Below, piece after piece: positions 37,182-62,436 of a stretch of DNA of 64,000 nucleotides. The stretch covers positions 352,001-416,000 of the forward strand of contig CAXXWQ010000003.1 in assembly GCA_963674945.2 (NCBI GenBank), in the 5' to 3' direction. A program made the position numbers and the translations under genes. Numbering within the stretch: position 1 is the first letter of the stretch; each line of letters starts with the position of its first letter. The notes below the pieces were generated by a model that made no database searches, was not told the origin of the DNA, and saw only the letters and a program-made list of their open reading frames with translations. The stretch is from an uncultured Desulfosarcina sp. (lineage in GTDB: Bacteria > Desulfobacterota > Desulfobacteria > Desulfobacterales > Desulfosarcinaceae).

Positions 37182-37231
37182 TGTAAATTTGCACACAAAC
37201 TCAGAATTTTTTGCAGATAAACTCAGAAATT
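37182..37231. repeat. Prophage terminus with tandem putative transposase-binding sites
   Basis: TGTAAA followed by TTTGCACACAAACTCAGAATTT (37188-37209) and TTTGCAGATAAACTCAGAAATT (37210-37231). Confidence 0.75.
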
Positions 37232-37260
37232 TTCAGCCATGTAAAAGCCAGTACGCAAAA

Positions 37261-37296
37261 CACCTGCTCGAATCAAATTGAAGGATTCGACAGGTG
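37261..37296. terminator. Inverted repeat downstream of the methylase
   Basis: CACCTG(c)TCGAATC ... GATTCGACAGGTG. Confidence 0.5.
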
Positions 37297-37328
37297 TAAA
37301 TTATTAGAATTTTGGGGTTAAATGCCTC

Positions 37329-38087
37329 CTAAAAATTTGTAATCAAAAGCTCATTTCCAACCGTCTGTTTGCCCTTCGAAACTGTGTATTTCAGCGCAAC
37401 AGGTTTAATTTCGAAAGCTTTAAATACCTCCCTGATATCAGAATGATCATTGATGCTTAATATGAATTTGCCACTGATTTTTGAAAGAATCTCTGCAAGT
37501 TTTTCGAAGTCTGCAAACCCAAAGTTATAGGCATAATATGGACATTTATAATAAGGAGGGTCGCAGTAAAAAAAGGTTTCTTCCCTGTCAAACCTCGGGA
37601 TAAATTCATCCCAAGGAAGGTTCTCAATCGTAGCATGAGCAAGCCGCAAATGAACTTCAGAAAGCGTTTCCTCCATGCGTAACAAGTTAATCATTGGCCG
37701 TCTCATCGGGCCTGAGCCATAGACCCTACTTTTTACCTTTCCTCCAAAACATAGCCGCTGCAGATAGTAATATCTGGCCGCGCGCTGGATATCCGTAAGC
37801 CCTCCGGCATCCTGTTGCCGATTCCAGTCCTCGAACCACTCCCTGGATGCCAAAAGCCACTTGAACTGCTTTAAAAATTCCTCCAGATGGTTCTGCAGCA
37901 CCCTGTAGAATGCGACCAGATCGCCATCCAGGTCATTGATCACCTCGTATTTGGATTGCTCCTTCCTGAAAAACACCCACGCGGCGCCGGCGAACACCTC
38001 ACAATAGCTTCTGTGTTCCGGGATCATTTCGATGATTGTCTTTGATAATTTCGATTTTCCGCCGATATAGGCCAATGGACTGTTCAC
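37329..38087 (-). CDS. D12-class (Dam-like) N6-adenine DNA methyltransferase
   Basis: YIGGKSKL, YCEVFAG, EVINDL, DPPY; GTG start after GGAGG. Confidence 0.93.
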   Translation of the reverse strand: MNSPLAYIGGKSKLSKTIIEMIPEHRSYCEVFAGAAWVFFRKEQSKYEVINDLDGDLVAFYRVLQNHLEEFLKQFKWLLASREWFEDWNRQQDAGGLTDIQRAARYYYLQRLCFGGKVKSRVYGSGPMRRPMINLLRMEETLSEVHLRLAHATIENLPWDEFIPRFDREETFFYCDPPYYKCPYYAYNFGFADFEKLAEILSKISGKFILSINDHSDIREVFKAFEIKPVALKYTVSKGKQTVGNELLITNF

Positions 38088-38209
38088 GAAAACCTCCAAG
38101 CACGTTTCTTTGGCCACAAGGGCCGTCTGAGTTCAGATGTCTGGTTGTCCGCATACAGCCATTCGCCCCGGGGATGTTGGCGCATCCACCAGGGCGGCCC
38201 TTTTCGTAT

Positions 38210-41200
38210 TTATGGTGTTGCGTTGGTAACCGTCTTGAATCCGGTCACGATCATATCGTCCCCGTCCGTAGCATCGACGATTGTCCCCTTGGCGGAATAA
38301 TTGATTTGTACCGTCTGGCCGCTGGTGGCCGCCGTGGTAGCGGTGAATGTCCTCGTCGCTCCGGAACCGCTGGGAGAGGACAGATTGATCGGCGTATCGA
38401 TATCCCAGTCGTAATAGAGGAAGAGATCTCCGGTGCTATACGACGATGTGTCGACCGATTGAGACCACGTGACCGATACGCTCGATCCATTGATGGAAAC
38501 CGCAGTGATGTATGGCCAGTCAACACCGAAAGAGGCATTGTTCGTTGCTGCCCATCCCTCAACGATCCCGCTGGTGACAGTGTTGTCATGGGCATGGTAA
38601 TTGACATTATCGACATAGATGCGATCCGAAACGGTATTGCCGTAAAACTCGATTTTATGCATCAACGTCACACCGTAGGAATCGGAACAATGCCCCGGAT
38701 TATACACAAACGCGTTTAGGTCGTTCCCAGTTGAGTTATTATAAAACAGCCCATTCATCGGGACGCCAAAGGAGCAATTTCCGGTTACGGAATAATCAGA
38801 GGGGTATCCGCTGAAAGCCGACTGCATCGTCATCCCACCATAGCCAACAACCGGGGCGGAGTTCCCCTCGAACATCACCCGATAGGCTGCTCCAAACACC
38901 AGCGGGCAGGAATTCCAGGTATGGGTAATCGTGTTAAACCCAAAATACGTGTTGATCGCAGGCGCACAGATGACCACTTGATCCCCGACAGAAGCGGAAG
39001 AGACATTTTCGCTGAAAGTAAAATCATCATGTACGTGCGTTAGGATCTTATACGTTTCGCCGATCAAAGCACCGTCAAGGAACACCATATAATACCCGGA
39101 AAAATCCCTCGACGTACTATCCCAATTTGCATGGGCCAACTCGATGGTGTTTGTACCAACTGCGGAAATCACATCCCGGTCAAATGTGGTAACGTCCGGG
39201 GTGCTGCTATAAACCGCATCATAGGAGGCACCCTCTTCTCTTGGATACGTGATTGTATTACAGGCAATGATATTATTTTCGAGCACGGAGCCGTTGCCGG
39301 TAATCCCGCCGCCACCAACAGTGGCCCCAGCCTTGAGAATAATACCAACAAAACCGCCATCGATCGTATTTCTCACAATCCGGTTGTTCTTTCCGGCCCG
39401 GATCTCGATATTATGACCAACCCCCTCGCTATTGTCCGAATCGATATTGTTGTAGTAAATGATCGCATTGTTCGCGTATGGCAGATAGATGCTGCCAAGC
39501 GTCGATCGATGTAATTCGCACCGGCGCACCTCTATCCCGTCCACCGGTACGGCGTTGGTGCTCTGGATCGCCCTGGTGTAGTTGGGCGCCCATCGAAAGT
39601 CCTGTATGCGGATATGGTCGTTCCCGCCGATATTGAGAAGCGTTGCGCCCATGTAGGCGGAAGATGAGCAGGTCGACACAACCGGCTCGCACGTTCCGCC
39701 AGACCACCCGTCCAGCGTGACCGGGTTTCCGCTCGTGCCGTAAATGTTCACATCGAGGCTGTCCTCGGTGATCGTGCCGGAAAAGAAAAACACATCTCCG
39801 CCGTAATCGCCTGTCAGGGCCTCGAACTGGGAAATGGAATAAGGAGAACTTTCCGACCCGTCGCCGCTCGCCCCATCGGCCACGTAATAGGTGTTCGCAG
39901 CAGCTTCTACGCCCACCGAGACGGTCCATCCCAAAGTGGTTGTAAGGGCGGTGTAGGCTGCATCCGATGAGGACGTCCGATTCGCGTTGCCGGTCAGGTT
40001 GATGTTGCCGCCGGTGGCGCCATGGGCCGCGAGGTCGATCAGGATATTGTCCACCTCCGTGGCATCCAATCCGAGATTGTCGAACGTGAGGATTGCCCCG
40101 TTTCCGGTGTTGAACGGCCACGAACCGCCGGTATAGTCGTCAATACCGCAGCCGGAGAGAAAGATGCTGGTTGCCAGAGACGCCGGCAAATCCGCGATGT
40201 CCCCGGCTATGGCTGTCCCTTCCAGGTTGAGCACGCCGGTCGGAGATATGGTGATATCGTCAGCGGCCCCTGTGACGCTGGTGTCTTTCAGGTTTACAAA
40301 AGAAATAAGGCCGCTCGGTAAACCCGTCACACTGCCGCCGATGTTGGTTGAATTGATCGCCAGGCCCCCGGTAAGGTTGCGCGGCAGGTCGGCCAGAGTT
40401 GAGCCACCTGTGAACGTCACACCAACCAATCCTAAAAAATCCGTAAGACCGGATGGGAGATCCACGGCATCAAGAGACAGTCCGGCCTCGTTATTTGCTG
40501 CCAGGTAGGTGACGGAGTTCCAGTCGCCCGTAATGGTGCCATTAAACGTCGTCGCCGACGCATAGGTGTGCTCGTAAAGGGTTTCGGTCACAGGCCCTGT
40601 CACGGTCGTGCTGGTCGAATCCCCCCAATCGATCTGGATCTCTCTTCCGGAGGGCAATGAAACAGTGAAACCGAGCGTAAGATCAACGGCCCCATCCTGG
40701 GCAAACGTCATTTCCTGCGAAGGCTCTCCGATTGTCCAGCCCAGAATATTGGACAGGTTTTCGAAGGCAGAATCGGAGGCGGTTGTCCTGGTCGCGTTGC
40801 CGGTCAGATCGAGAGTTCCATTCGTGATCGTGCCGGCATTCGCATAGGTGTTCAAATCAATGAGAAGATTGTCCACTTCCGTTGCATCCAGACCGAGATC
40901 GGCAAATGAAATCGTCCTGCCCGATGCCGTCTGCATCGGCCACGTTCCGGATGTATACGTGTCGACGGCCGTATTGCTGATATCGACGTCTCCGGTAATC
41001 GTGGATGGAAAGCCCGCGATGTCACCGCCAATGGCGGTGTTCGATGCGTAAAAATTGCCGGAAAGCCCGCTCCACAGATCGCCGATAGCACCGTTTACCT
41101 GCGTTCCCGTTATATCAAGGTCATAAACGACATGCGGAAGGGCCGCCAGCGCTCCGGTCGCGGCGGTGCTCCTGAGATAAAGGCTGGTGATGTTCTGGGA

Positions 41201-42103
41201 AAGAGACGTCGCGTCTCCATAGGCCAGCGTATTGTCGAGGTTGAGAATGCTGCTGAGGCCGGCGGGCAATTCGGAAAGGTTGATTGTCAGGCCGGTTTCG
41301 TTGGCCGCATGAAAATAGGTGACATCGTCCAGATCGTACCGGATCATGCCGTTGTGGGTGTTGCCGGCAGGATAGGTGTGCGCGTAATTCTGTGCCGTGA
41401 CCGGGCCGTTGACGGTCGTGATGTCCCCGTCCCCCCAGACGATCTCCACGGTGCTGTCGGACGGCAAAGAGAGGGTAAAATCAAGATTTGCATCCCCGGT
41501 CTGCGAAAACGGCATGTAATCGTAATTGATCTCCGGGATGCGGTACGTGACCATCAGCGTATAGCTGTCGGTTTCGGGAACGGGGGTATTGTCCACGTCG
41601 AAGCAAAGCCCCTCGCCGGTGGCAAGCGTGTTATCGCCCGTGACCGTGTAGATCCTCGTCTGCTCCGATCCCGAACTCGCCGCGACCACGGAATGGTTCA
41701 TCGGGGTCCCGCCCCTGTCTTCCAGAGAGATCTCGGCGGTGGTCGTGCAGGTACCGGAACAGTGAACCCCGAAGGACTCGATGGTCATCGGCAGGTTGGC
41801 GATGAAAAACTCGTAATTGTCGTCTGCTGCGGCCAGTTTGTCTTTGCGGTATGTATATGTGGATATGGTGACCTGGTTCGCCAGCGCATTCTTATTGGCG
41901 GCGATATCAGCCGCATGCCGGGAAAGGGTATCGGCGTTGTTTGATATTTCGCCGGCGTTGGCGTCTATTTGATCTTGCACATTTTCTCTGACACCGCTCA
42001 GGCGATCAATCTCTTCACCCGTCGCTTTGCCTGGAAATTGTCCGGCAAGGGCTGCACTGACAGGCAGCAGAAGCAAAGCGATATAAAGAATCCATCTTTT
42101 CAT
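38210..42103 (-). CDS. 1,297-aa fibre/adhesin-like protein: signal peptide, duplicated PKD-like+LRR-like unit, beta-helix, C-terminal Ig-like domain
   Basis: MKRWILYIALLLLPVSAALA; (I/V)xWGD..HTY units; YYVADGASGDGSESSPY pectin-lyase-like start. Confidence 0.75.
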   Translation of the reverse strand: MKRWILYIALLLLPVSAALAGQFPGKATGEEIDRLSGVRENVQDQIDANAGEISNNADTLSRHAADIAANKNALANQVTISTYTYRKDKLAAADDNYEFFIANLPMTIESFGVHCSGTCTTTAEISLEDRGGTPMNHSVVAASSGSEQTRIYTVTGDNTLATGEGLCFDVDNTPVPETDSYTLMVTYRIPEINYDYMPFSQTGDANLDFTLSLPSDSTVEIVWGDGDITTVNGPVTAQNYAHTYPAGNTHNGMIRYDLDDVTYFHAANETGLTINLSELPAGLSSILNLDNTLAYGDATSLSQNITSLYLRSTAATGALAALPHVVYDLDITGTQVNGAIGDLWSGLSGNFYASNTAIGGDIAGFPSTITGDVDISNTAVDTYTSGTWPMQTASGRTISFADLGLDATEVDNLLIDLNTYANAGTITNGTLDLTGNATRTTASDSAFENLSNILGWTIGEPSQEMTFAQDGAVDLTLGFTVSLPSGREIQIDWGDSTSTTVTGPVTETLYEHTYASATTFNGTITGDWNSVTYLAANNEAGLSLDAVDLPSGLTDFLGLVGVTFTGGSTLADLPRNLTGGLAINSTNIGGSVTGLPSGLISFVNLKDTSVTGAADDITISPTGVLNLEGTAIAGDIADLPASLATSIFLSGCGIDDYTGGSWPFNTGNGAILTFDNLGLDATEVDNILIDLAAHGATGGNINLTGNANRTSSSDAAYTALTTTLGWTVSVGVEAAANTYYVADGASGDGSESSPYSISQFEALTGDYGGDVFFFSGTITEDSLDVNIYGTSGNPVTLDGWSGGTCEPVVSTCSSSAYMGATLLNIGGNDHIRIQDFRWAPNYTRAIQSTNAVPVDGIEVRRCELHRSTLGSIYLPYANNAIIYYNNIDSDNSEGVGHNIEIRAGKNNRIVRNTIDGGFVGIILKAGATVGGGGITGNGSVLENNIIACNTITYPREEGASYDAVYSSTPDVTTFDRDVISAVGTNTIELAHANWDSTSRDFSGYYMVFLDGALIGETYKILTHVHDDFTFSENVSSASVGDQVVICAPAINTYFGFNTITHTWNSCPLVFGAAYRVMFEGNSAPVVGYGGMTMQSAFSGYPSDYSVTGNCSFGVPMNGLFYNNSTGNDLNAFVYNPGHCSDSYGVTLMHKIEFYGNTVSDRIYVDNVNYHAHDNTVTSGIVEGWAATNNASFGVDWPYITAVSINGSSVSVTWSQSVDTSSYSTGDLFLYYDWDIDTPINLSSPSGSGATRTFTATTAATSGQTVQINYSAKGTIVDATDGDDMIVTGFKTVTNATP

Positions 42104-42158
42104 TGCAGGCCTTTCGATTGGCAATCAATATCAGGTAAGGGGTACGCGATTTCAATCA

Positions 42159-43088
42159 TTATTGACGCGCCCCATAACCGCACAGAACCAAATCTCCATT
42201 GATGGTGGTAAAATCCGTTTGCGGCGACACTATGATTTCAAATGATCGCCCGGTCACCTGGATTTTCTTCGATACCGAACAGCCGGCGGCGCCGCCGCCA
42301 TCAGAATCGATTCTATCCGTTACGCGTGCGATAATTCTCGATGTCTGGTTGGCGACCGAAAATTCGTCACCGCCGATGTTCCGGGCATAAAGGCTCAAAT
42401 CCGCTGTGGCGCCGGCAGTTCCTCCGGTAGTAATGTAGCAGAGCATATTGATTGTGATTTCCACCCAGGCAGCATTTTCCGGTATCGCATCCAAAGCGCT
42501 CCAGACAAACGAGCTTTGATAAAGAGTTTCAAATCCGACACCGGTAAGGGCACTGTCCAGCGCAACGAGCGGCGGGCTGCTCTCGAAGGTCATATGTATC
42601 CAGACCGTAGCGCTAAACGAGATTCTTTCCACCGTAACATTGCCGGCGCCGTAAACGGTTTCCAGCTCGGCCTGGATCGTCGCGGCGGTTGCATCGAAGG
42701 CGATCGGACTGGTGTTCGTCGAACCATCTCCGAGTGTGAACGTCCCGCCGGTGATGTCGATCATGGCAAGGGTCCAGCGCTCCTTCGTTCCCGTCGGCCC
42801 GACGATCGTCCATCCGGCGCTTTCGATATCGTCAAATTCGAACTGCTCATCGTCGATGTTGGGAGATCCGGATGCATTGGTGACAAACACACCGAACTCG
42901 TCGATGGAGGCCTCCGTCCACTTGAGCCATCGATCGATCAGACGAAACGCCCAATTAAAATATTGAAACGGCGGTTTTTCATTCGATACCCAGCCTGCCA
43001 GTTTTTTCGCCCCGGAAGGTTCCGCGAATTTATCGCCATCATCGTCGGTTATCCAGTCCAGGTGGCCTGTCGTCGGTTTGGTCGCCAA
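42159..43088 (-). CDS. Tail fibre protein
   Basis: N-terminal EPS..KKLAGW...EKPPFQYFNW baseplate-attachment motif; located after the baseplate genes. Confidence 0.75.
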   Translation of the reverse strand: MATKPTTGHLDWITDDDGDKFAEPSGAKKLAGWVSNEKPPFQYFNWAFRLIDRWLKWTEASIDEFGVFVTNASGSPNIDDEQFEFDDIESAGWTIVGPTGTKERWTLAMIDITGGTFTLGDGSTNTSPIAFDATAATIQAELETVYGAGNVTVERISFSATVWIHMTFESSPPLVALDSALTGVGFETLYQSSFVWSALDAIPENAAWVEITINMLCYITTGGTAGATADLSLYARNIGGDEFSVANQTSRIIARVTDRIDSDGGGAAGCSVSKKIQVTGRSFEIIVSPQTDFTTINGDLVLCGYGARQ

Positions 43089-43100
43089 AACGCTCTCCTT

Positions 43101-43787
43101 TTACTCCTTCACGATGTAATACTCGCCATTGGGCAAGATGTAGTAGTCGCCGCCGGCCTCCACATAAGCGGTACCCGACGGCCCGGCGTGAGACAATTCG
43201 GCCCCCTGGATATAGGCAAGCTGTCCACCGGCATCGGGATCATCAACATCCCCGAATCCGCCCACCGTGTCGTCATCCGGATCGAAACCGAAATCATTGG
43301 ATGCCGTATAGATGATCGCCGGAAAATCGATTTCCACGCCGCCGGCCGGCACTTTTCTCATCATGGTGAAAATGAATTGGATCAGGTCCTCGTCCAGAGG
43401 TACGTCGCAGTAAAGATCGACCTGGCCGGGATATACCTCCAAAACATGGATATTGTCCGCCTGCGACAATATCTTCCAGACGCCGATGATCTCCTCGATG
43501 GTGCCGCGGCTGACGAGCTGTGCGCACCGGGCCGTTAAAAGAACGCGGTAGACAGCATCCTCCCACCCGGCCCGCTCGGTACCGACAATCCGGCCGATGC
43601 CGTTTAGCTGTTCTCCCGCAGAGCCCTCGATATCCAGCCGGCCGTACATGGATGAGACAACATCCTCGATTTCCTGCACCGGGGACAGCAATGCATCGAT
43701 CAGAGCGGAAAGATTCGGCCGGTCCTTATACTGCATCAGCAGCCTGGACCGGGCATCGGCAACATGGGTGTCGATGGGGAGGATCAT
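43101..43787 (-). CDS. Baseplate protein (DUF2612-like)
   Basis: LLMQYKDRPNL, G.QL..IGRIVG..R, D..YR; follows baseplate J. Confidence 0.8.
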   Translation of the reverse strand: MILPIDTHVADARSRLLMQYKDRPNLSALIDALLSPVQEIEDVVSSMYGRLDIEGSAGEQLNGIGRIVGTERAGWEDAVYRVLLTARCAQLVSRGTIEEIIGVWKILSQADNIHVLEVYPGQVDLYCDVPLDEDLIQFIFTMMRKVPAGGVEIDFPAIIYTASNDFGFDPDDDTVGGFGDVDDPDAGGQLAYIQGAELSHAGPSGTAYVEAGGDYYILPNGEYYIVKE

Positions 43788-44992
43788 GATGTCGCCACCG
43801 TTATGTTCTCAGCCGACCAGAGCGACATTTCCACGGTCCCTCCGGAGCCGTCATCGATGTCGATGTTATCGTCGCCCGTCGGGCTTTCCGTTCTTCCGAT
43901 TCTCACCGTCACATCGACAATCCCGCCAACGCCGGCAAGCTGGGCCACCAGTGCGGGATAAACGACGATATCGACACCGGCGCCGAGGCTGTTTCCCCAT
44001 TTTACGACCAGCTCCTTGACCAGATCGTCCCCGTTGCCCGGATAGTCGCCGGTTGTGGATAGATCCAGCTCCAGGTAAACCGGCACCGATACCGGCCTGG
44101 AAAACCGGCAGGTGCGTTTCTGGCCGTCACTGGAAACGACCTCGACGGCAACATCGCCGTGGGGTTTTATCCCGGCCGGTTTGGACGTCAGCATGATCGC
44201 ATCGGCGATCTCCTGGTCCCGGTCCGTAACGCCTCCGGCCTGGTACACCACGACGGCGATCGATTTGCCGGGGATGCCCCGGGAATCGGTCTCCAGTTCA
44301 AAGTTTTCGAAAACGCTGCAGTGCGTGATCGTCGCCCTGGTCGTGTCCTCGTTCAGGGCCAGGATGGCTTTTCGTATGGCCTCCGTCGGCCCCGCATTGG
44401 AAATGACCAGGTTGGTGCTGCGCCGGATCCGCGCCTCGGCATCGGTTTCCCGGTTGCGCCCTTCGATGGCCGCGGTCGGGTTGGTGACAGAGTTCAGCCC
44501 GGATATGGGTGTCACGATATTGGTAAGGGCGCCGGCGGCAACGGATATGGGGCCGGTCTGCTGGGCGATGCAGTCGACGGCGGCCGCAGTGCCGCTGATC
44601 GTTACGGCCGACTCGGTGGCAAATACTACATCGGCGGCGCCTTCCACGGAAAACAGGGTCCCGGACGGCACCACGGTCCCGTCCGTGCCGGTGAGCGTCA
44701 CACCGTTGCAGCGGCTGTAGGATGCGGCAAGGCGCTTTACCGCGGTGATCGCCAATACATGATCCAGGCTGGCGCCGCCGGACGTGTCCGGGTATTGAGC
44801 GTTGTAAAGGTCCTCGAGCGCTTCCCACAACAGCGCCTCGCGTTCGGCGAAAATACTCTTTAACTGGCCGAACACGGAAGACTCCGTGGTGTTGATATGC
44901 ACGCCGAAGGCGGCGCGCAGTGCCGCCTCGATCTCGTTTTCGCACTCGACCAGGGTCTTTCCGACAAATCCGCTTTCGGTCATTCCGCTCAT
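43784..44992 (-). CDS. Baseplate J / gp47-like wedge protein
   Basis: GTDGTVVPSGT, G..SVTNPTAA..GR.RETDAE.R.R. Confidence 0.9.
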   Translation of the reverse strand: MSGMTESGFVGKTLVECENEIEAALRAAFGVHINTTESSVFGQLKSIFAEREALLWEALEDLYNAQYPDTSGGASLDHVLAITAVKRLAASYSRCNGVTLTGTDGTVVPSGTLFSVEGAADVVFATESAVTISGTAAAVDCIAQQTGPISVAAGALTNIVTPISGLNSVTNPTAAIEGRNRETDAEARIRRSTNLVISNAGPTEAIRKAILALNEDTTRATITHCSVFENFELETDSRGIPGKSIAVVVYQAGGVTDRDQEIADAIMLTSKPAGIKPHGDVAVEVVSSDGQKRTCRFSRPVSVPVYLELDLSTTGDYPGNGDDLVKELVVKWGNSLGAGVDIVVYPALVAQLAGVGGIVDVTVRIGRTESPTGDDNIDIDDGSGGTVEMSLWSAENITVATS

Positions 44993-45348
44993 GGCAACAC
45001 CTCGTCGAAAGAAATCTGCTCTCCGGACTCTGACGTGGCGGTAAATGTCAGCTTCAACCGTCGCGTCCGCCGTTCGACGGAAAGATCAAAAAAGGTCAGC
45101 TCGACGATCCCGGGCGTATTGATGATCGCACTTTTAAAAACACCGTCCAAAACCACAGGGTCCGGGTTTTTCACCAGCACGTGCTGCAGGTACGGCACCC
45201 CCTTTCGCTGGTCTCGGAACCACTCCCCCAGCCATGTTTTCAATCGTTGGGCAAGATGCTGGACGATGGCGCTTTCGCCGGTCACAACGGCCAGGTCGCG
45301 ATCGGCGATCACCAGGTCCCAGGTATCCTTGTCCAGTGCCAGATCCAC
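44989..45348 (-). CDS. Baseplate wedge / sheath initiator (gp25-like)
   Basis: QRLKTWLGEWFRD...GVPY...TPG. Confidence 0.8.
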   Translation of the reverse strand: MDLALDKDTWDLVIADRDLAVVTGESAIVQHLAQRLKTWLGEWFRDQRKGVPYLQHVLVKNPDPVVLDGVFKSAIINTPGIVELTFFDLSVERRTRRLKLTFTATSESGEQISFDEVLP

Positions 45349-45578
45349 TATTCGAGATCTCCTTTTCCGGTCAAACCACCGCCCTGGCTATCCAGAAAGG
45401 TTCCGGGAACGGCATGGCCGTTTGTCTTGATGTGGTTTACGATCGCCGTGCAGATCACCTGCCACTGCTGGGTCATGACGGCCTGCTCCGATCCGTCCAA
45501 TTGTCCGCCGGGCGCCGTTGCGGCCAGTGCGGCCGCCACTTCCGATCCCATTTGATTGCCGTTTAGGGCCATGATCAA
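45348..45578 (-). CDS. Small baseplate-region protein
   Basis: MALNG...WQVIC.AIV.HI..N; translationally coupled to its neighbours. Confidence 0.65.
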   Translation of the reverse strand: MIMALNGNQMGSEVAAALAATAPGGQLDGSEQAVMTQQWQVICTAIVNHIKTNGHAVPGTFLDSQGGGLTGKGDLE

Positions 45579-49597: not shown

Positions 49598-49600
49598 GAT

Positions 49601-50606: not shown

Positions 50607-50622
50607 GATTTCATCCTCCCGT

Positions 50623-50671: not shown

Positions 50672-50677
50672 CCAGTC

Positions 50678-51718: not shown

Positions 51719-51722
51719 GTTC

Positions 51723-53914: not shown

Positions 53915-53948
53915 TGAAAGACTCCTCGTTGATGGTTGAAAAGGCGGA

Positions 53949-54902
53949 TCAGATGCCGGTGAAGAACAAAAACGCCAGCGGGTACCGCACAACAACGCCG
54001 CCGATGCGCGACTCGCCGGGCACGATCATCTCCAGCCCCTTTTCCTGGGCCGGATAGATCGTAAGCTCCATGGGAACGCGAAGCTCGAAGTTCTCACGGG
54101 ATTTTTCGTACAGCACCATGCCGTCCTTAGTTCCGGATACGAACGCATTGTCCAGCTCGCCGTACATGGGCTCGATGGTCTTGATGCCGTACTTGTCGGA
54201 TTTGGAAAGAAGGAATTCCAAAATGGTTTTATCGCTGTTGTCGCTTCTCGGCGTACCGGCGATCAGGTCGTACTGCGCATTGGGCAGCAATGCCGTGTCG
54301 GCCTGGTGAATGCCCTTGGACTGGGTGCGCACCTTGGACGTGGCCAGGTAAAAATCCTTGATGATCTCGTCCGGCGTCTTGCTGGCCCAGTCCGGCGTCC
54401 CGGCATCGCCGTTGCCGGCCGCCAAGGTCGGGATGTTGGTGTTGCTCAAAAATCCGGGAATGCCGCTTGCGGCATGCCCGTTCCATGCGATCGCACTTTC
54501 CCGCTCGCGAACGGACCGCCGTTGGGCCGCCGCCTTTTCGGTCTCCAGGCCCACGCCGGCCATCATGGCGGCACGGATCTCCTGGCGGCTGTATCCCACC
54601 GCGCAGCCGATCGAGCGCACCGGGTGAGAATAGGATTTGCCGTACACGTCGGCACGGGGCAGATCCTGGCTGTAGTCGGCGATGATCTTGGCCATGCCGA
54701 TCCGCTCGTACATGATGTAGGTGATGGTCTCCGCGCCGGAGTTGTCCCGGTTGGAAACGGGGATCAGGTTGCGGTATTTTAGTTCCCGCTCCTTGAACCG
54801 GTAAATCTCCGCCTCCACCGCCTCGAGCTGGCGCGACGTGAACAGCGCGGCGTTCTGGTCGATGGCGTCGAGAAATACTCTTACTGCGTCGATTCGAATC
54901 AT
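53949..54902 (-). CDS. Major capsid protein (DUF2184-like, HK97 fold)
   Basis: F..RQLE.VE..IY, G.AKIIA, DLP..D, GGVVVRYP.A. Confidence 0.9.
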   Translation of the reverse strand: MIRIDAVRVFLDAIDQNAALFTSRQLEAVEAEIYRFKERELKYRNLIPVSNRDNSGAETITYIMYERIGMAKIIADYSQDLPRADVYGKSYSHPVRSIGCAVGYSRQEIRAAMMAGVGLETEKAAAQRRSVRERESAIAWNGHAASGIPGFLSNTNIPTLAAGNGDAGTPDWASKTPDEIIKDFYLATSKVRTQSKGIHQADTALLPNAQYDLIAGTPRSDNSDKTILEFLLSKSDKYGIKTIEPMYGELDNAFVSGTKDGMVLYEKSRENFELRVPMELTIYPAQEKGLEMIVPGESRIGGVVVRYPLAFLFFTGI

Positions 54903-54978
54903 GATGGACTCCTCTTAAAAGGGGTTTTTTTACTGTTGCTGCGGATATCGGGCAAATTGGCCATTTCCGGTCGGATAC

Positions 54979-55455
54979 TTAGGTCAAGTTGAGATCCAGC
55001 AGCGCCACCTCTCCCGCCTCCGCGTCGGTGACAAACTTGGCATTGGGCAGGGCAACGGCGTCGGTGCCGTCGGCATCGCTGCGAAAGGCGCCAAGCTGCT
55101 CCGCCCCTTCGGCGACGAACCGGACGAAGGCCGCGCTCTCCGCTTCCACCGCGTCCTCCACCGGCACCCATACGCGCCCCTTTTTTACCACCGGCATCAC
55201 ATCCTTGTCCGCATACCCCTCGTCCTGGGGTTGGGTATGGCTGCGTGCGACAACGCCGAGGCCGACCAGGCCGGTCACCTCACCTGTGGCGTCAGGCAGT
55301 ACGGCAAGACCTTCGCCGCTGCCCTTGGTGACGAACGAACCGAAGGGGATGATGTCGCCTTGCTCGTTGGCGTACGTCAAAACGTCGGATTTGCCGATGT
55401 CGGCGATCTGCCCGGCAAGGCCGACTTCCATGTTCTCTCTGACTGAAGTCTGCAT
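54979..55455 (-). CDS. Head decoration / cement protein
   Basis: G.AGQIAD, IPFG, KGRVWV; located between protease and capsid genes. Confidence 0.75.
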   Translation of the reverse strand: MQTSVRENMEVGLAGQIADIGKSDVLTYANEQGDIIPFGSFVTKGSGEGLAVLPDATGEVTGLVGLGVVARSHTQPQDEGYADKDVMPVVKKGRVWVPVEDAVEAESAAFVRFVAEGAEQLGAFRSDADGTDAVALPNAKFVTDAEAGEVALLDLNLT

Positions 55456-55515
55456 AATATTCTCCCTGGTTTGAAAAGCGGTTGCGTCAGGCGATCTTCA
55501 CGGCGCTATACGGCG

Positions 55516-56676
55516 CTATGAATCTGCGCCGTCAAACAGCGCGTTGGATTTTTCGATGAATTCGGCCCGGTGATCGGTCTTGGTCTCGGTCTTCTTGGCG
55601 TCTGCGATAAACGTGGCCAGACCGTTTTGGGCGCCCTCTTTTTTGGCGGCGTCGAGGATTTCGACAACGGCGTCGAACCGGGCGTTGATGTATTCGTCGG
55701 ATTTTCCGTCGGCAGTAAAATCCGGCGCCTGCTTTTGGATCACGGCCACCTTGACCGCCTTGTTGTCCAGGCCGTCGGTCTTGATCTCCAGGCTGCCGGC
55801 CACGTCCTCCAGGGCCTTGCGATCGGCGATGATGGCCTGGATCTTCTCGCCGGAAGGATCGCTCAGGGCCTCCACATCAGCTTTCAGCTTTGCGCTTTCC
55901 GCTTCCAACGTGTCGACCTTTGCCTGGGCTTCATCGGATTTTCTCGTCATCGCAACGATCCTGGCGGCCTGCGTTTTGATCACATCCACCGCCTCGTCGA
56001 GCTTGGCGGACATGCGGGACAAGACGCCCTGGGCGTCCTTGGGGACCTGCTCCTCGATGGCGTCCATCGAAAAACCGTCGATCTTCAGTGCTTTGCGGAT
56101 AAACGTAAACATGGGGTTTGCCTCCTTCTGGTCGAGTTGAAGTTTGATTTTCTCACCCGCCCGTCCCTGGGCCACGATGGCGACATGGTTGTAGCGGATG
56201 TTTTTCTGCACGGCGTCGTAATGCCCTTCGGTGGGATGCTCGCCGGATATGGGCGCAAGGTCGGCCCGGTACCCGCAGGACAGCTCCACGCCTTTGCCCC
56301 GGGCACGCATGTCCTGCACATATTCGATCACCGCCTTGTCCGTGATCTTCACCCGACACTTGACCACCTCGTCATCGTGGGTGATGTTCTCGCCGGTCAC
56401 ACCGACCTGAAGGCGGCGGATGTTGTCCGTGGTGACGATCTTTTCGCCCGGGTGCAAAAACGTAATGGGCTGCATGGCAAGAGAAGCCAGGGACTGGTCC
56501 GAAAACACCTCTTCCGGCGGCCGTAATTCCCGGATCAGGTTGCCGTCGGCATCGTGGTAGTCGAATACCCCGGTCCGTGTGGCGAACGCATCGCAGACCA
56601 GGTATCCTTCCGGCGTGATCTCGAAGGCGCCGTCGGCCCGGTCCAGGCGGATGGTAAACGTACGACTTTCTTTCAT
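55516..56676 (-). CDS. Prohead protease/scaffold (DUF2213-like)
   Basis: TPEGYL, RTGV..Y, ELSCGY, YDAVQ.NI.YNHVAIV..GRAG; coiled-coil C-terminus. Confidence 0.88.
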   Translation of the reverse strand: MKESRTFTIRLDRADGAFEITPEGYLVCDAFATRTGVFDYHDADGNLIRELRPPEEVFSDQSLASLAMQPITFLHPGEKIVTTDNIRRLQVGVTGENITHDDEVVKCRVKITDKAVIEYVQDMRARGKGVELSCGYRADLAPISGEHPTEGHYDAVQKNIRYNHVAIVAQGRAGEKIKLQLDQKEANPMFTFIRKALKIDGFSMDAIEEQVPKDAQGVLSRMSAKLDEAVDVIKTQAARIVAMTRKSDEAQAKVDTLEAESAKLKADVEALSDPSGEKIQAIIADRKALEDVAGSLEIKTDGLDNKAVKVAVIQKQAPDFTADGKSDEYINARFDAVVEILDAAKKEGAQNGLATFIADAKKTETKTDHRAEFIEKSNALFDGADS

Positions 56677-57572
56677 GCGGCTTTCTTCTCCTTGGCCTTG
56701 TACTCCATGAATTCGTCCAACACCGGCTCGGCCGTACACCGGCATTGAAAGTCCTCGCCCGGGTGTCCGGTATCCGGCGGATCATCCCATCGAAACCGCT
56801 TTCCGTTGTTGGCAAGGTGCGACGGCCGGTCCGCGCCGTCATTGGTCGATCGCCAGATGTACTCCTCCACGCCGGCCTCTGTCTGGCGAAGCTCTGTCAG
56901 TTTGCCGTTGAGGCTGCTCACCTGGTCCCGGGCGATGAACCGTGCCCGGCTTTTGGTCGTATCCAGCTTTTTTTGAATGGCCTTTTCCAGGGCCCGGACG
57001 CTGTCACCGGCCTCCACCCGGGCCATGATCATCACCTGCAGGTCCCTGGCCGCCTTGTCCGTGATATCCTTGATCAGGCCGACGTTATTGAAAACGAACG
57101 CCTCGATCTTGGGCCGCAGCCATTTCTCCTGGCGAAGCACCGGGATGCCGAGCACGGACGAGAACTGCCCGTCCACCTGCCCCTTGTTGAAATCCGATGT
57201 GCGGGTGGCGAACCGCCCGGCAGCTTCCCGGATGTCCTCGTCCGTTACCCGGGCCGCCACGTTCAAACGGATGCCGTCGAATACCTTGCCGATCATCTCG
57301 CCGTATCCGTCTTCTTTTTGTGAAAACATGGCATCGGCTTTTAAGTCCTCGTTTCTCGCCGAAACGATTTCTCCGAGCACCGGCACCAGCGATTTTTTGA
57401 TCTGATCGAAAAATGGTTCCGTCAGGCGCAACAGTTCCGCCCTGTAGGACCTCTCGATGGCCGTCGGGTGCAATTGCGCCCGCGGGCGCCGTTTTCTCGG
57501 CAACCGCCGGCCGGCGGCCTTCATCATTTCTCGCCGGGCCCGGATGGCGGCCTGTTTGTCGGCAGGCGTCAT
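56673..57572 (-). CDS. Minor head protein (SPP1 gp7 / Mu F-like)
   Basis: RARFIARDQ, Y.W....D...R.SH, HPG....CRC. Confidence 0.9.
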   Translation of the reverse strand: MTPADKQAAIRARREMMKAAGRRLPRKRRPRAQLHPTAIERSYRAELLRLTEPFFDQIKKSLVPVLGEIVSARNEDLKADAMFSQKEDGYGEMIGKVFDGIRLNVAARVTDEDIREAAGRFATRTSDFNKGQVDGQFSSVLGIPVLRQEKWLRPKIEAFVFNNVGLIKDITDKAARDLQVMIMARVEAGDSVRALEKAIQKKLDTTKSRARFIARDQVSSLNGKLTELRQTEAGVEEYIWRSTNDGADRPSHLANNGKRFRWDDPPDTGHPGEDFQCRCTAEPVLDEFMEYKAKEKKAA

Positions 57573-58933
57573 TCCATTTCCTCCGTTTCCATGTCGGCGC
57601 CCTCGTTATCCGAGGGATTTTCCCGCCCTTCCAGCTCGATGACAGTCTCCATGCTGTACCCGTCCGGCCCGAACCGGTTGATGGCAACCTCTTCGGGCGT
57701 CAGCACCTGGTTGGTGATGTAGATCGCATCCGTCTCGGCCACCGTCTTTCGCGTATCGGCAAGCTCCTTTTCCGTGGACTGCCACAGCGGCGCGAAAGAA
57801 AAGGACCAGTCGCCGCCGGCTTTGCCATGTTCTGCCAGGATCAGCTCGATGACGCGCGTCAACGGATAGCGGATGTGCTTTTGCTGATACGCCTTGACCC
57901 GGTCGTAGTAGTTACGGGTCGTCTCGTCAGCACCGGACAGGGTTCCCAATTGCTGCCCGAAAAGCCGGGTCTTCGGAATATCCGAAGCGGCGGACATCAG
58001 GTCCATGTACTTGTCCATCAGCTCGACCAGGCCGGTGATGGGGTTCTGAACCTTTGTAAACTCCTCGTCCGATCCGATCAGGGCAAGGCCGATGGAGGAC
58101 ATCCCCGCGGCGGCGTACTGCATGCGCGCAAACAGCGTCGCCTCTTCGCCGCTTGCGATCAGCTCGGCCAGGTTCGGGATCTTGAGCGTCTTGGTAATGA
58201 AATCCTGAAACAGCACGGCGCCGGACTGGATACTGGTTCCGAACTGCTTGAGCTGCTCGTTGATGGCAACGAACACCGAATCGTGCCAGCCCTGGTTTTG
58301 CAGCCGTTGCCGGTCCGGCAGCCAGCTTCCGTTGAACCGGATCAAGCGCGATTCGTGGATGACGGCGCCGGAGCTCACCTGTGCGGCATTGGCCGCGTTG
58401 ATCCGGTAGGTCTCCGGCATCCCGAAATTGGGTTTCATGGGGTCGTCATAGGTTTTTGCCGGCGTGATCTGCCACCGGTCCAGCACCGTCAAAGACTGCA
58501 ATCCCTTCACGCGCGATGCGCCCAAGGGCTCTTCCGGGTTCCCACCGTCCGTGGTTCCAAGGATGACCGTCGATCCGCCATAAAGCCGGGACAGCCGCAA
58601 CGCCTCTTCGAACACCGGCCAGACGTTGATCTCCTCCATTCTCAGGTTGACTCGCTGCCCTTCCTCCGGGTCCTCGATGGAAAGGTTGATCCGCTGCCGG
58701 CATGCGTCTTCGGGAAGTGCGTTGACGATCCGGCGTGGCAGCCAGAAATACCGGTACATCTCCTCCAGCTCGGTCTGGCTCGGCACGATGCCGCCGACAA
58801 ACTCGGTCCGCCGCATGGGGTCTTTCGGCCCGCCGAACCCGGAAAAGGCGTTCACGTACATGTCCGTGCGCGTATGGGTGGGCTTTCCGCTGCGGGCCTC
58901 GAAGGCGGCCAGTTTTTGGGAAAGGTCCGTCAT
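57569..58933 (-). CDS. Portal protein (DUF1073-like)
   Basis: SRLYGG, IHESRLIRF.G, IP.TRLFG, NYYD.V...Q, F.PLW. Confidence 0.88.
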   Translation of the reverse strand: MTDLSQKLAAFEARSGKPTHTRTDMYVNAFSGFGGPKDPMRRTEFVGGIVPSQTELEEMYRYFWLPRRIVNALPEDACRQRINLSIEDPEEGQRVNLRMEEINVWPVFEEALRLSRLYGGSTVILGTTDGGNPEEPLGASRVKGLQSLTVLDRWQITPAKTYDDPMKPNFGMPETYRINAANAAQVSSGAVIHESRLIRFNGSWLPDRQRLQNQGWHDSVFVAINEQLKQFGTSIQSGAVLFQDFITKTLKIPNLAELIASGEEATLFARMQYAAAGMSSIGLALIGSDEEFTKVQNPITGLVELMDKYMDLMSAASDIPKTRLFGQQLGTLSGADETTRNYYDRVKAYQQKHIRYPLTRVIELILAEHGKAGGDWSFSFAPLWQSTEKELADTRKTVAETDAIYITNQVLTPEEVAINRFGPDGYSMETVIELEGRENPSDNEGADMETEEME

Positions 58934-60471
58934 GCGACCATCCTTTGCATCATCCTGCCGATTACACCGCGCGCGCCGAGCCGTTTCAGCGCGTCGGCAA
59001 CCGAAGATCCGCCCTGCTGGAGAAGGGACACGGCGCCCTCCAGGGCGTCGGGCCCGTCATCGTTGACGTTTTTGTTGAGAAGGTAGATCAGTTGTTCGAC
59101 CAGACGGTCCTGGTCGCTGTGGCCTTTTCGAAAACGAAGTTTTCCGAACTCGACGAGATAGGAAAGCGTTCCGATGATCCGCGCCTCCTTGTTCGTGCTG
59201 TGAAGCTTCGGGCGCCAGGGAAGATACCGGCCGGTCTGCTTGGCATAGTTCTGGATCGCCTCGTGGAGAAAATCGTGAAACATGTTCTCTTCGATCCCCA
59301 CCGGGCCGTGGTACTCGTCATGCTGCCGGTAGGCGGCGGCGAACATCTCGGACGGGCTGGCATGCCGGATCCAGGCGTGCAGCACGTAGAAAATCATCGT
59401 GGCCCTGTCCAGCCCGACGGTGACGCACGCCTTGTAATCGTTGTTCTCGCCGCTTTTCGCGCTGGGGTCCGTGAAGCTTGCCGTGCGAAGCTCGATCCCG
59501 GCAATTTCCTCGATTTCGTAGTACCGGAACCATGTCTCGGGAAAAGGCGAGTTTTCTGCGCCGGTGAGGTTGCGCATCTCGGCATTGAAATCCACCGTGC
59601 CCATCTGGCGCTGTTTTTTCTCCAGGCGTTCCGCCGGCCACAGCGCCGGCCACAACGGCCTTTGGGTGGGTTTGCCGTAATCGATCCAGCAGTCGTACAC
59701 CTTGGAGACGTACAGCTTGTTTCCTTCTTCGTCCTTGGCGGCGATGAGCTGGGAGATGACGCTTTTCGGGTGAAACAGGTTCCCGACCATGTTCGCCGTG
59801 TACCCGGCGCCCATGCTGCCGATCACGGCCCGGACCAGCCAGCGCTTTCCCTTTTCCACCTGTTTGGGATTCTCGACATTCTCGTCGTTTTCGAAATCGT
59901 CGATGATGGCGCGATCCGGACGGTGCTGCCGGTTTTTCAGGCCGCGGACCTTTTCTCCCCGGCCCCTTGCCAGAACACGCACCCCGTTTGCCGTCGTAAA
60001 ATCGTTCTTCTTCCAGACCTTGCCGAAAAAATCGCCGAAGTCATGGCGCAAACGGGGATTTTCTTCGAGCTCCAGCCGGATCGGAAGGGTAAACCCGCTG
60101 GCCTGGTCGTTGGTGTCCGAGATGATCAGGATGAACCACCGCAACTGGTACACGATGTCGTGGATCGGCAGGCCCAGTGTGAAGAACGTGGATTTGGCAT
60201 GCTCGCGCGGGGCCCCCAAAAGAACCAGGGCGTCCTTGACCTCGGTCAAGTCCTCCCATTCTGAATGGCAATCGGCGAATGCGACCGGAAAGTAATGCGG
60301 CAGGTACGTCTTGAAAAAATAGAGCAGATCGTACTCGGCCCGCATCTTTCGCTCGGCCTGCTTATCCGGGGTGTCGTTTTCGAACGGCGACACCGATTCT
60401 GCGATCCAGGCCTTGATGTCATCGGCCCAGCGGTCGAAGCGAAGTTCGGTAAGTTTAGGACGCTTGCGCAT
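58930..60471 (-). CDS. Terminase large subunit
   Basis: APREHAKST Walker A, RPD..IIDD.END, TDPS, DDGPDALEG nuclease motif. Confidence 0.93.
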   Translation of the reverse strand: MRKRPKLTELRFDRWADDIKAWIAESVSPFENDTPDKQAERKMRAEYDLLYFFKTYLPHYFPVAFADCHSEWEDLTEVKDALVLLGAPREHAKSTFFTLGLPIHDIVYQLRWFILIISDTNDQASGFTLPIRLELEENPRLRHDFGDFFGKVWKKNDFTTANGVRVLARGRGEKVRGLKNRQHRPDRAIIDDFENDENVENPKQVEKGKRWLVRAVIGSMGAGYTANMVGNLFHPKSVISQLIAAKDEEGNKLYVSKVYDCWIDYGKPTQRPLWPALWPAERLEKKQRQMGTVDFNAEMRNLTGAENSPFPETWFRYYEIEEIAGIELRTASFTDPSAKSGENNDYKACVTVGLDRATMIFYVLHAWIRHASPSEMFAAAYRQHDEYHGPVGIEENMFHDFLHEAIQNYAKQTGRYLPWRPKLHSTNKEARIIGTLSYLVEFGKLRFRKGHSDQDRLVEQLIYLLNKNVNDDGPDALEGAVSLLQQGGSSVADALKRLGARGVIGRMMQRMVA

Positions 60472-60925
60472 GGTGCTCCTTGAACCGGCTTACGATCGTA
60501 TCGAAATTTCTCGCAAACACCTTCAGACCGCCCGGGTCCACATCCTTGAGGGTTTCTGCGATGAACGCCATGTCTTCGAGAAAAAGCTTGGGACGGTCGA
60601 TCTCCACGGTCTCGGAATCGTTGTTTTTCTCGCTGTCCATTTGCAGCTTGAGAACCTTTAATGCCGCATAGGCTTGTTGCGGATCCTCGGAATCCACCGC
60701 CTTTTGCAGCATCGTGTCCCTAAGCTTGACAAGCTGCTGTTTCAGTGTTCGTTTGCTCGTAAGGTACTTGGCCCGCTTTTCCCGCCAGTGGCCGTCTTTA
60801 GCCCAGCGTTTTAGCTGAGAAACGGAAACTCCGGTGGCATCGGCGACCTGCTCGTAGGTTTTACGCTCCTCTACGTACAGGTCCTCGGCTTCGAACCGGA
60901 TCTTAAGGTCAATTTCCTGTGCCAT
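60455..60925 (-). CDS. Terminase small subunit-like HTH protein (DUF1804-like)
   Basis: AEDLYV....T.EQVA...GVS...LKRW...G.W; directly upstream of terL. Confidence 0.75.
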   Translation of the reverse strand: MAQEIDLKIRFEAEDLYVEERKTYEQVADATGVSVSQLKRWAKDGHWREKRAKYLTSKRTLKQQLVKLRDTMLQKAVDSEDPQQAYAALKVLKLQMDSEKNNDSETVEIDRPKLFLEDMAFIAETLKDVDPGGLKVFARNFDTIVSRFKEHHAQAS

Positions 60926-61014: not shown

Positions 61015-61224
61015 TCAGCCATCTTTTTGTCCCGAAAGATTGGCAGCCATCACGCCCAGCTCCTTGACCAGGTCAACCAGCATGCCGGTCACCCTGTCCA
61101 TGAGGTTGCGGTATCCCTGCCAAAGCCGCCAGATGGCATAAAACGCAACGGCATTGACGGTAAGGCTCAAAAGCAGGGCCGCGTCCTTGCTGCCGGCGAC
61201 ATCCTTGATCCAGTGCCAGTTCAC
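61015..61224 (-). CDS. Small single-TM phage protein
   Basis: Hydrophobic LLLSLTVNAVAFYAIW segment; coupled to its neighbours. Confidence 0.6.
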   Translation of the reverse strand: MNWHWIKDVAGSKDAALLLSLTVNAVAFYAIWRLWQGYRNLMDRVTGMLVDLVKELGVMAANLSGQKDG

Positions 61225-61622
61225 GATCGTTTGGACTTGTGCTTGAGCGCGCTGGATTCTGCGACGTCCCGGGCAGATTCGCTTTGCCGTTTCAGGTCAG
61301 CGGAAATGTCGAACATGTCCAGTGCTCGTTCGAACTCGTTGGCCGTCTCGTTGTCCACCCTTCCGCCGGAGAACAGGTGGCTGGCCGTGGCCATGAAGCG
61401 GCTGGCCAGCCGGTCCCTGGGCGTCTCTTCCTTGGAAATGTTCTCGCCACCGTCTTCCAGGGCCATCAATAGCTGATCCAGCCGGGTGTTCAGGGCCTGG
61501 GCCAGATCCTCCACGGACTGCTCAAGACGCGACAAGTCTCCATAATGCCGGCCGTTGGTGCCCAGATAGCCCAAAACCGCATGTTTCAATTGTTTGATTT
61601 TCTGGATGCTTTGCCGCGTCAT
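61221..61622 (-). CDS. Hypothetical phage protein
   Basis: GAGGAGG RBS, 133 aa, overlaps the next gene by GTGA. Confidence 0.65.
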   Translation of the reverse strand: MTRQSIQKIKQLKHAVLGYLGTNGRHYGDLSRLEQSVEDLAQALNTRLDQLLMALEDGGENISKEETPRDRLASRFMATASHLFSGGRVDNETANEFERALDMFDISADLKRQSESARDVAESSALKHKSKRS

Positions 61623-61833
61623 CTTTCCTCCTCAATGCGTTAAATGACGAAAAGTAGGTGTTAACCGCGAATGGCCTTGATGGCCCCTTCGATGAGTCCG
61701 GCTTCTTACTCGGCCCTCTCCTGCCATTTCAGGCACCGCCGCCAGCCCGGTACCGCCTTTTCCCTTGATCGGCAAGGGCCAGGCCGAGAAAATAATCGGA
61801 CACGGCCTGGCCGTAATCGCCATCATTCATGGA

Positions 61834-62001
61834 CTATTTGAGCATGCCGGTACGAACGAAAACGACACTCAGCGCAGCCAATGATCCCTGGATGGCCTGC
61901 ATCCATGTCGTCTCGCCGGAAACGGCGCCGCCGATCGCAGCAACAGCTCCTGCCACGCCTGTCCAAACCGCCTTGCTCTGGTACCACTTCTTCTTTTCCA
62001 T
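61834..62001 (-). CDS. Putative holin (55 aa, two TM segments)
   Basis: Manual translation MEKKKWYQSKAVWTGVAGAVAAIGGAVSGETTWMQAIQGSLAALSVVFVRTGMLK; AAGGAGG RBS. Confidence 0.7.
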   Translation of the reverse strand: MEKKKWYQSKAVWTGVAGAVAAIGGAVSGETTWMQAIQGSLAALSVVFVRTGMLK

Positions 62002-62010
62002 GATGCCTCC

Positions 62011-62436
62011 TTAAAAACATTCGAGTATGGTTAAATGAGCGCGATCGAAACCTCGCATGGCAGACATGAACGAGCGAAAGGCATCTTTCGAAGATAAAAC
62101 CCCGCGATCCTTTTCGATGCGTCCGTACTGCCGGGCAAGAAGGATACAGCCGTCGGTCTCGACGGCACGATTGCCGGGATGGAAACGGATCAGGTCCCGG
62201 AAGGGCACGTCGCAGACCTCGAAGGTCTCCCCGAACCGGCTGGACTGTATCCGTTTGAGTTTGTACTGCTGTGCCGGGATGGATGAGCGATTGCGCTGGT
62301 TTTCTCGATCGGGAGGCTCAAGCGTGACGCAAAAGACCTGCTTGTTGATCCGGAGAACGCCGAATGTTCCGTGCTCGGAATCTTCTTCCAGCCGGATCAA
62401 CTCGATGATGGGGATAAGATTGTGGTCGGGTGTCAT
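62011..62436 (-). CDS. Putative endolysin (DUF5675-like)
   Basis: GTFG.L, FC.TLE, IPA..Y, R..I.FHPGN....TDGCIL; first gene of the lysis/late block. Confidence 0.75.
   Translation of the reverse strand: MTPDHNLIPIIELIRLEEDSEHGTFGVLRINKQVFCVTLEPPDRENQRNRSSIPAQQYKLKRIQSSRFGETFEVCDVPFRDLIRFHPGNRAVETDGCILLARQYGRIEKDRGVLSSKDAFRSFMSAMRGFDRAHLTILECF

Follow-up and report, generated by a model that had tools for sequence, protein, structure and literature searches.

The genome of an uncultured Desulfosarcina sp. (GenBank assembly GCA_963674945.2; here G000), a member of a genus of sulfate reducers, contains a Mu-type transposable prophage of 48,939 bp that carries a virion module of the DUF1073 portal family. 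The late half of the prophage lies in the analyzed stretch of 64,000 nucleotides, referred to as the window (contig CAXXWQ010000003.1, or C3, positions 352,001 to 416,000, forward strand), and about 22 kb lies past the window edge; coordinates above 64000 continue the window count along the same contig, and the element spans 37182 to 86120. Comparison with related elements makes it quite probable that a Mu-type prophage ancestor took the portal-to-baseplate genes of a non-transposing DUF1073 myophage through a crossover in the 3′ end of terL, the gene of the large terminase (TerL), and that the predicted portal-docking tail of TerL was included in the transfer.

The original prediction, which had proposed Mu-like end and packaging genes on a non-Mu virion module, anticipated a transposase at the other end of the element. 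The early genes on the same contig encode DUF3164, GemA (PF06252), MuB, MuA, a Ner-like protein and a repressor, with MuA and MuB adjacent and co-oriented. Residues D270, D337, and E382 of MuA align with the DDE triad of Mu A, which we take to be at positions 269, 336, and 392, and the triad is intact. Both ends are of the Mu type, with a terminal dinucleotide (TG on the right, TA on the left) and repeated transposase-binding units. Two units with a spacing of 22 bp follow the TG at 37182, and the left terminus was fixed by comparison with relatives as the TA at 86019, with the left tip duplicated exactly over 101 bp out to 86120. A candidate left end at 85826 was rejected after the same comparison, being an inner repeat unit. 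The terminus, terminal methylase, lysis-then-terminase gene order, helix-turn-helix (HTH) small terminase (TerS), and HAKST-bearing TerL (58930 to 60471) are all present as originally named, the TerS and lysis genes lying upstream of terL. The packaging genes, described as Mu/B3-like, do belong to transposable phages, but the TerL tree places TerL with KS10-like phages, Mushu, and D3112-like phages (about 30% identity to these nearest isolates) and not with Mu or B3.

Profile scans over the 33 open reading frames (ORFs) of the window assigned the portal to PF06381 with a score of 285 bits (cut-off, 33.8) and also to TIGR01555 above its cut-off, whereas PF06074 (Portal_Mu/DUF935) had no match at an E value of ≤0.01 among these ORFs and in this genome matched three other prophage sites only. 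The DUF1073-type set (PF06381, DUF2213, PF09950, DUF4054, DUF3383, and DUF2612) is complete and in order. The tube matched phrog_280, and its match to PF11681 was below the cut-off. These assignments agree with the predicted DUF1073/DUF2213/DUF2184/DUF4054/DUF3383/DUF3277/DUF2612 composition and with a portal outside DUF935. The likeness to Bcep781, PB1, and AP22 holds for the shared families but not for close relationship: the portals of the three phages are distant in the portal tree, the sheath has 346 aa versus about 490 to 500 aa in those phages, and the best isolate matches of portal and capsid are unrelated phages at 28 to 37% identity. The absence of lesions in the structural genes was also borne out, as the ORF lengths equal those of orthologues in five relatives, with a tape measure about 25 to 50 aa shorter.

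The module was found in 11 elements from 10 records (G000, G440, G441, L050, L093, G442, G570, G631 with two copies, G743, and L103), which originate from Desulfobacterales and metagenomes, and wherever the context is readable it occurs solely in transposition-type contexts. Seven of the 11 elements carry MuA and MuB. The prophage of Desulfosarcina widdelii PP31 shares the layout gene for gene, with identities of 73% (MuA), 92% (TerL), 75% (portal), 87% (capsid), and 78% (sheath). In a sample of 401 genomes from the order, MuA matched 16 genomes at an E value of ≤1e-60, and 5 genomes (six loci) exceed the PF06381 cut-off; five of these six loci represent this module within MuA/MuB elements, and the sixth, G469, has no transposition gene within 40 kb. 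A protein search returned 24 clusters (query included) at an identity of at least 58%, followed by a drop to at most 52%. The members form one clade in the portal and capsid trees (Shimodaira-Hasegawa [SH] support of 91 and 99), whose sister is L105 and, in the portal tree, L100 (SH support of 100), both with non-Mu TerLs; the L105 record, which is 72% complete, has no MuB match. The portal tree was a quick IQ-TREE reconstruction, the TerL, MuA, and capsid trees were made with FastTree, and all were midpoint rooted. An integrase prophage, G393, has the same gene order at mostly 26 to 40% identity. The 5-bp target duplication is intact in three (G570, G631a, and G631b) of the five members with both ends resolved, and the two G631 copies are near-identical and occupy different sites.

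The portals adjoining close relatives of this TerL are of several kinds. Among 58 viral loci with a TerL at least 55% identical, the portal is DUF935-like in 37, phrog_10963 in 13, and DUF1073 in 3; the remainder comprises two phrog_3753 portals, one HK97-like portal, and two loci whose portal is off the contig. The phrog_10963 portals beside this TerL clade come with fused protease-capsid genes (L012, L031, L036, L056, and nine more), the HK97-type portal is at L048, and the phrog_3753 portals are at L062 and L063; several of these loci have transposition genes upstream, and they represent further unnamed non-Mu virion types. The TerL at L215 (G778; 807 aa) is about 330 aa longer than its relatives and by eye appears to have an intein-type insertion.

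In the TerL tree, the carriers of the module are spread over three unrelated core clades and nest among DUF935-linked TerLs, and the monophyly of carrier TerLs was rejected by the approximately unbiased (AU) test (12 rows; p-AU, 4.7e-6). The last 25 to 30 residues of TerL, however, track the portal and not the core. The motif [ST]VA[DE]A[LI][KR] occurs in nine of nine carrier TerLs and in none of 56 other tails, a count that excludes three tails that were not extractable and loci lacking a readable TerL end. Among 26 ORFs that precede other DUF1073 portals, several of these ORFs not being TerL, a relaxed motif matched only two, those of L105 and L100. The motif lies 27 to 56 nucleotides (nt) from the portal start, with synonymous variation at all six codons. 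A common W-E/D-x-L-A tail terminates both the Mu-type and the Bcep781-type cores of a second lineage. Mean tail scores were 28.6 across cores with the same portal versus 19.5 within a core with other portals. The crossover is likely to have been inside terL, because three unrelated cores share one tail motif that is also found in the nearest outgroup phages. According to the accessible text of two sources (PMC4856287 and PMC13595956), portal binding was mapped to the TerL C terminus in lambda, T3, SPP1, and P22; there the prohead-binding domain was shown by genetics in single phages, whereas here it is deduced from cosegregation across natural chimeras. This comparison indicates that the TerL tail is likely a portal-docking peptide that moves with the portal, and a portal-linked tail likely explains the whole-kit virion swaps in such phages.

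A crossover just after the TerL nuclease domain would bring the docking peptide along with the new portal, while the retained transposable-phage TerS would pick phage DNA within the chromosome. The phage would multiply by replicative transposition, and TerL, docked through its tail, would package by the headful mechanism into the borrowed head, leaving host DNA at the ends of the packaged molecule. At the same junction, the transposase, TerS, and TerL core, which make up the front half, have probably been exchanged repeatedly since.

DUF1073-headed transposable phages also occur in another class of Desulfobacterota. Of 201 genomes of this class, 13 exceed the PF06381 cut-off; eight were examined at length, of which five (G430, G827, G911, G830, and G997) have MuA and MuB and three have no MuA/MuB match, and the other five were covered to ±1.5 kb. 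TerS is of the Mu gp27 type in the three elements scanned (G430, G830, and G997), and TerL is of the Mu type in G430 and G827 and of the Bcep781 type (38 to 40%) in G911, G830, and G997. The last three were considered as non-transposable donors on account of their TerL and were rejected, since they carry MuA/MuB. The portals are 27 to 29% identical to that of this copy, and that of G430, the only one in the tree, groups separately. Group B of D. piger was rejected as a second lineage, its Mu-like prophages being listed with gp29/DUF935-type portals in the portion of PMC12724379 available. There are at least two independent lineages of DUF1073-headed transposable phages in Desulfobacterota. The undescribed chimeric lineage of the original prediction thus stands, as 11 elements forming one clade, but the chimerism is of old date and has arisen more than once, not in a single event. 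On balance, we lean towards a broader reading in which transposable phages are a replication cassette that could fit almost any tailed-phage virion kit by crossing over within the final 30 codons of terL, with the tail peptide as the adaptor; in Desulfobacterota this would comprise these two or more lineages as well as forms with phrog_10963, phrog_3753, and HK97 portals, and sites just downstream of tRNA genes would be the targets of the MuA clade to which this copy belongs.

The association of tail and portal could also arise in a real lineage if the tail merely hitchhiked with the adjoining portal gene and docking were set elsewhere in TerL. The tail holds the ribosome-binding site and overlapping start of the portal gene, so any upstream crossover carries it, terL and the portal gene overlap or abut in most members, and hitchhiking of about 30 flanking codons is expected from recombination. 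We consider this unlikely, given that the motif is conserved as protein through the synonymous changes and variable spacing noted above next to portals only about 51 to 62% identical, and that the genetics of several phages maps portal binding to the same terminus. The direction of transfer could likewise be reversed, with the module ancestral in these transposable phages and acquired from them by L105 and L100; the gene order TerS-TerL-portal-MuF-protease-capsid also fits Mu, and the midpoint rooting of the trees would accommodate it. This is very unlikely, as the remaining rows of the portal tree outside the second lineage (G393, G300, 20 environmental loci, and 4 isolates) have no Mu-type TerL or transposition matches, by query or by annotation, in the stretches covered, carrier TerLs nest among those linked to DUF935, and DUF935 portals far outnumber DUF1073 portals (37 versus 3 of 58) beside close TerL relatives. 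The stretch could also be two decayed prophages fused locally, or an assembly error, rather than a working phage type, which would account for the missing target duplication, the 10.6-kb block bearing insertion sequences (IS), and the duplicated left tip of this copy. This is extremely improbable: G440, G441, G631, and G743 have this early-to-late arrangement but not the block, the three members with intact duplications refute it unless they are themselves misassembled, and one public contig spans the right junction with no difference. The sequence is held by four sequencing runs of one study, with no RNA run listed. Among the matches listed, the contigs of these runs have no alternative joint at 37182, and their depth over the virion genes is about that of the flanks, although such contigs drop rare variants and may stem from the source sample and so do not bear on activity.

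Several observations weigh against acquisition of the module by a Mu-type ancestor in the form preferred here. A regular expression for a shared DUF935-type tail matched just 16 of 41 sequences. The flanks of this copy differ, and the duplication is absent from two of the five resolved members (G000 and G440, i.e., this and the D. widdelii copies). L093 and G442 have GemA and a Mu-type TerL with MuA unseen; the MuA of L093 would lie past the flank examined, and G442 has no match to MuA of this copy. L050 and L103 are fragments. The TerL, MuA, and capsid trees are FastTree only and gave long-branch warnings. The non-transposable status of L105 and L100 rests on TerL type and on the negative MuB result for L105, L100 being a 5.6-kb contig, and every member is known here from sequence alone.

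Compared with Mu, D3112, B3, KS10, and Mushu, the elements are alike in the MuA DDE motif, MuB, GemA, repressor/Ner, and a TG end with binding units, as well as in 5-bp duplications (in the relatives here) and the order lysis-TerS-TerL-portal-MuF. They differ in virion genes (PF06381, DUF2213, PF09950 with cement, DUF4054, and DUF3383 instead of a PF06074 portal and the Mu set), in length (41 to 49 kb versus about 37 kb), in the TA left terminus, and in late regulators: no match to Mu Mor, Mu C, or L093 Mor was found in this element. Mor is present in G631 and L104, with no match in G570, G743, and G442. A larger genome as the selective advantage of the borrowed head was unsupported, as members of 41 to 45 kb are close in length to the DUF935-type prophages that these hosts carry (about 41 and 43 kb). 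Bcep781 (Naesvirus), PB1 (Pbunavirus), AP22 (Obolenskvirus), and FP_Brigit have the same portal family and a similar virion set, and FP_Brigit, the best isolate match of the capsid (37%), also has a short sheath. Unlike the present elements, Bcep781 and AP22 (whole), PB1 (1 to 45 kb), and Brigit (19 kb) have no annotated transposition genes, and the TerLs of Bcep781, AP22, and PB1 lie outside this TerL clade. The distant portals, the TerL clade, and the presence of MuA/MuB place the element outside Naesvirus, Pbunavirus, and Obolenskvirus.

A portal, protease, and adaptor core is reported for 21 of 22 reference transposable-phage genera in the available text of PMC8705779, and this element lacks the gp29-type portal and Mu-type protease and adaptor of that core. 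Transposable prophages of Leptospira that have TA ends and two other structural modules are also described there (Olo Ndela et al. 2021); they resemble the present elements in combining a transposition module with virion modules sharing few or no structural genes with Mu-like references, in TA termini, and in the absence of Mor/C. They differ in host phylum, a B3-related TnpA, and 6-bp duplications, and the modules were interpreted by the authors as homologues that have diverged. The principle of non-Mu virion modules on transposable phages therefore has a precedent in Leptospira, and the portal families there may bear on novelty; no Leptospira record was among the matches listed in the plasmid searches. 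A Bacteroidales Mu-like family is defined in bioRxiv 10.64898/2026.05.11.724261, as far as its available text goes. Neither the isolate collection nor the literature searched yielded a described genus of transposable phages with this gene set, and the literature, covered by title and start of abstract, including few subscription papers and in one search limited to 20 of 770 listed papers, gave neither DUF1073-headed transposable phages nor Mu-like prophages of Desulfosarcina. The elements are a real and apparently undescribed variant of transposable phage; judged from their genes, they are Mu-like in presumed replication and outside the described genera in portal, protease, adaptor, and Mor.

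The insertion sites of this MuA clade appear to be biased towards tRNA genes. The left end of this copy sits 89 bp past the 3′ end of tRNA-Arg(TCG). Of 22 loci of the clade examined, 19 had a readable flank at one or both ends, and 10 of these end 80 to 143 bp past the 3′ end of a tRNA (8) or a 3′ tRNA remnant (2), including ends in G440, G441, G445, G448, G594, G628, and G631 and in this copy (86019 to 86210). Either element end may face the tRNA, and 3 of the 10 keep the duplication. The other nine comprise one at 387 bp, two located 5′ of tRNA-Leu arrays, and six elsewhere. With 52 tRNAs in G000, the binomial probability of 10 of 19 is about 4e-14, even if only intergenic DNA is considered, the hosts being kin and the tRNAs different. 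Arrays of three or four tRNA-Leu(GAG) with 400- to 730-bp spacing were observed beside Mu-like left ends at L227:5600-7400 and L228:9700-11000. Biased target choice is described in the available texts for Citromicrobium Mu-like phiA, which targets a 40-bp zone in one host gene (PMC12486242), and Pseudomonas Ab30, whose hotspots are BIME repeats (PMC5977238), but neither involves the region after tRNA genes. The possibility that tRNA genes are hotspots of Pseudomonas saltoviruses was rejected, with 0 occurrences in the available text of PMC5977238, where the hotspots are BIMEs. No tRNA-adjacent Mu-like insertion was found in the title and abstract search of the literature.

Table 1. Features of the prophage and its junctions, in window coordinates
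Feature	Positions	Strand	Basis or remark
Host higA (antitoxin gene), interrupted by the element	36937..37181	+	TIGR02607 above cut-off; intact homologues L004/L005 run on past the cut
Right end: TG terminus and two tandem transposase-binding-like units	37182..37240	-	Sequence; same unit inverted at far end and at relatives' ends
Terminal D12-class adenine methylase	37329..38117	-	PF02086, phrog_56
Likely tail fiber/adhesin genes (1304 aa, 309 aa)	38210..43088	-	No family match; role from position
Baseplate: DUF2612, Baseplate_J, wedge, spike, hub (E217 gp41), plug (Pam3 gp18), Dit-like	43101..48106	-	Profiles
Tape measure, chaperone, tube (phrog_280), short DUF3383 sheath, terminator, closure, neck	48110..53022	-	Profiles; lengths versus relatives
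DUF4054 adaptor, PF09950 capsid, cement, DUF2213 protease, MuF-like minor head protein	53168..57572	-	Profiles
Portal, PF06381/phrog_146/TIGR01555 (DUF1073 family)	57569..58933	-	Profiles; portal tree
TerL C-terminal tail, residues 487-513, predicted portal-docking peptide	58930..59013	-	Motif residues 490-495 = 58987-59004
D3112-type TerL and HTH TerS	58930..60925	-	phrog_38; tree
Pre-terminase genes, 55-aa holin candidate (61834-62001), DUF5675 putative endolysin	61015..62436	-	Lysis roles inferred
Cargo block start, 3′ part of DUF4062-TPR gene	62600..64000	-	Low GC; block runs on to 73300
DUF3164	73372-73989		Early region past window
MuB	75819-76574		phrog_296
MuA	76618-78747		PF09299, phrog_310
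Repressor	80821-81300	+	

The right terminus interrupts higA after codon QQA (Table 1). Six-frame searches found no 3′ half of higA in the assembly, and the right-end flank was not found beyond the left end either; an adjacent deletion driven by the element end likely accounts for the missing half and the unmatched flanks. An IHF/HU-like gene (36059 to 36340) lies by eye immediately left of higA, and the methylase of the 6.49-Mb element of G440 is likewise flanked by IHF-like genes. The methylase is likewise the terminal gene in G440, G570, G631, and G743. The 1304-aa putative fiber (38210 to 42124) is 86% identical (tblastn) to the fiber of another prophage of this genome, one of the DUF935 type, and was not found in five lineage relatives, which suggests a recent exchange between co-resident prophages. 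A host repeat of 121 bp (53043 to 53163), with 106 copies of at least 95 bp genome-wide, occupies the intergenic region between the neck and adaptor genes and is a gap relative to L017/L050. Loss of the pre-lysis phrog_2161 gene as a sign of a dead copy was weakened, as G570, which has an intact duplication, G743, and G442 likewise have no match. The 10.6-kb cargo block between the early and late genes (GC content, 0.42) contains DUF4062-TPR, PDC-M11A/B, IS66, HNH, kinase, and IS1380-type genes, both the IS66 and IS1380-type elements being multicopy in the host. The candidate defense pair PDC-M11A/PDC-M11B (EVE and ASCH domains; 65107 to 66935, L001:3107-4935) adjoins the DUF4062-TPR gene, and a long inverted repeat at 62458 to 62502, just upstream of the lysis genes, is a possible terminator or late-control site.

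Other Mu-like elements were observed in this and related genomes. A DUF935-type Mu-like myovirus prophage occurs twice in G000 (C3:1965400-2008200, and C1 from about 406800 with its remainder at the start of C3); the two copies have swapped 5-bp flanks, as expected from transposition-linked inversion or recombination between copies, and one target is a chemotaxis-like gene. A third Mu-like prophage (G000:C4:1770600-1808000), with a TerL 59% identical to that of this copy, a DUF935 portal, and a different transposase type, provides a within-genome control. Two Mu-like elements of G440 meet across exactly 5 bp (C1:1911046-1911057), the DUF1073-type one having TA at both termini. In another G440 element, of the MuA clade of this copy (C1:6460412-6500383), host metabolic genes fill about 24 kb from the methylase to the right end, with no virion genes found.

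Transposable prophages account for most DUF1073 portals in the order sampled. Such lineages would be missed or misfiled, because portal, protease, and adaptor serve as core markers and Mu/B3 portal queries are used to detect transposable phages, as described in the available text of PMC8705779. D. widdelii PP31 offers a cultured host with a complete genome that carries a member. Insertion next to tRNA genes, if true, would represent a mode of target choice unlike that of Mu. The natural chimeras point to a six-residue motif as the likely portal-docking determinant, which bears on the long-standing question of how TerL recognizes the portal and how motors and heads mix.

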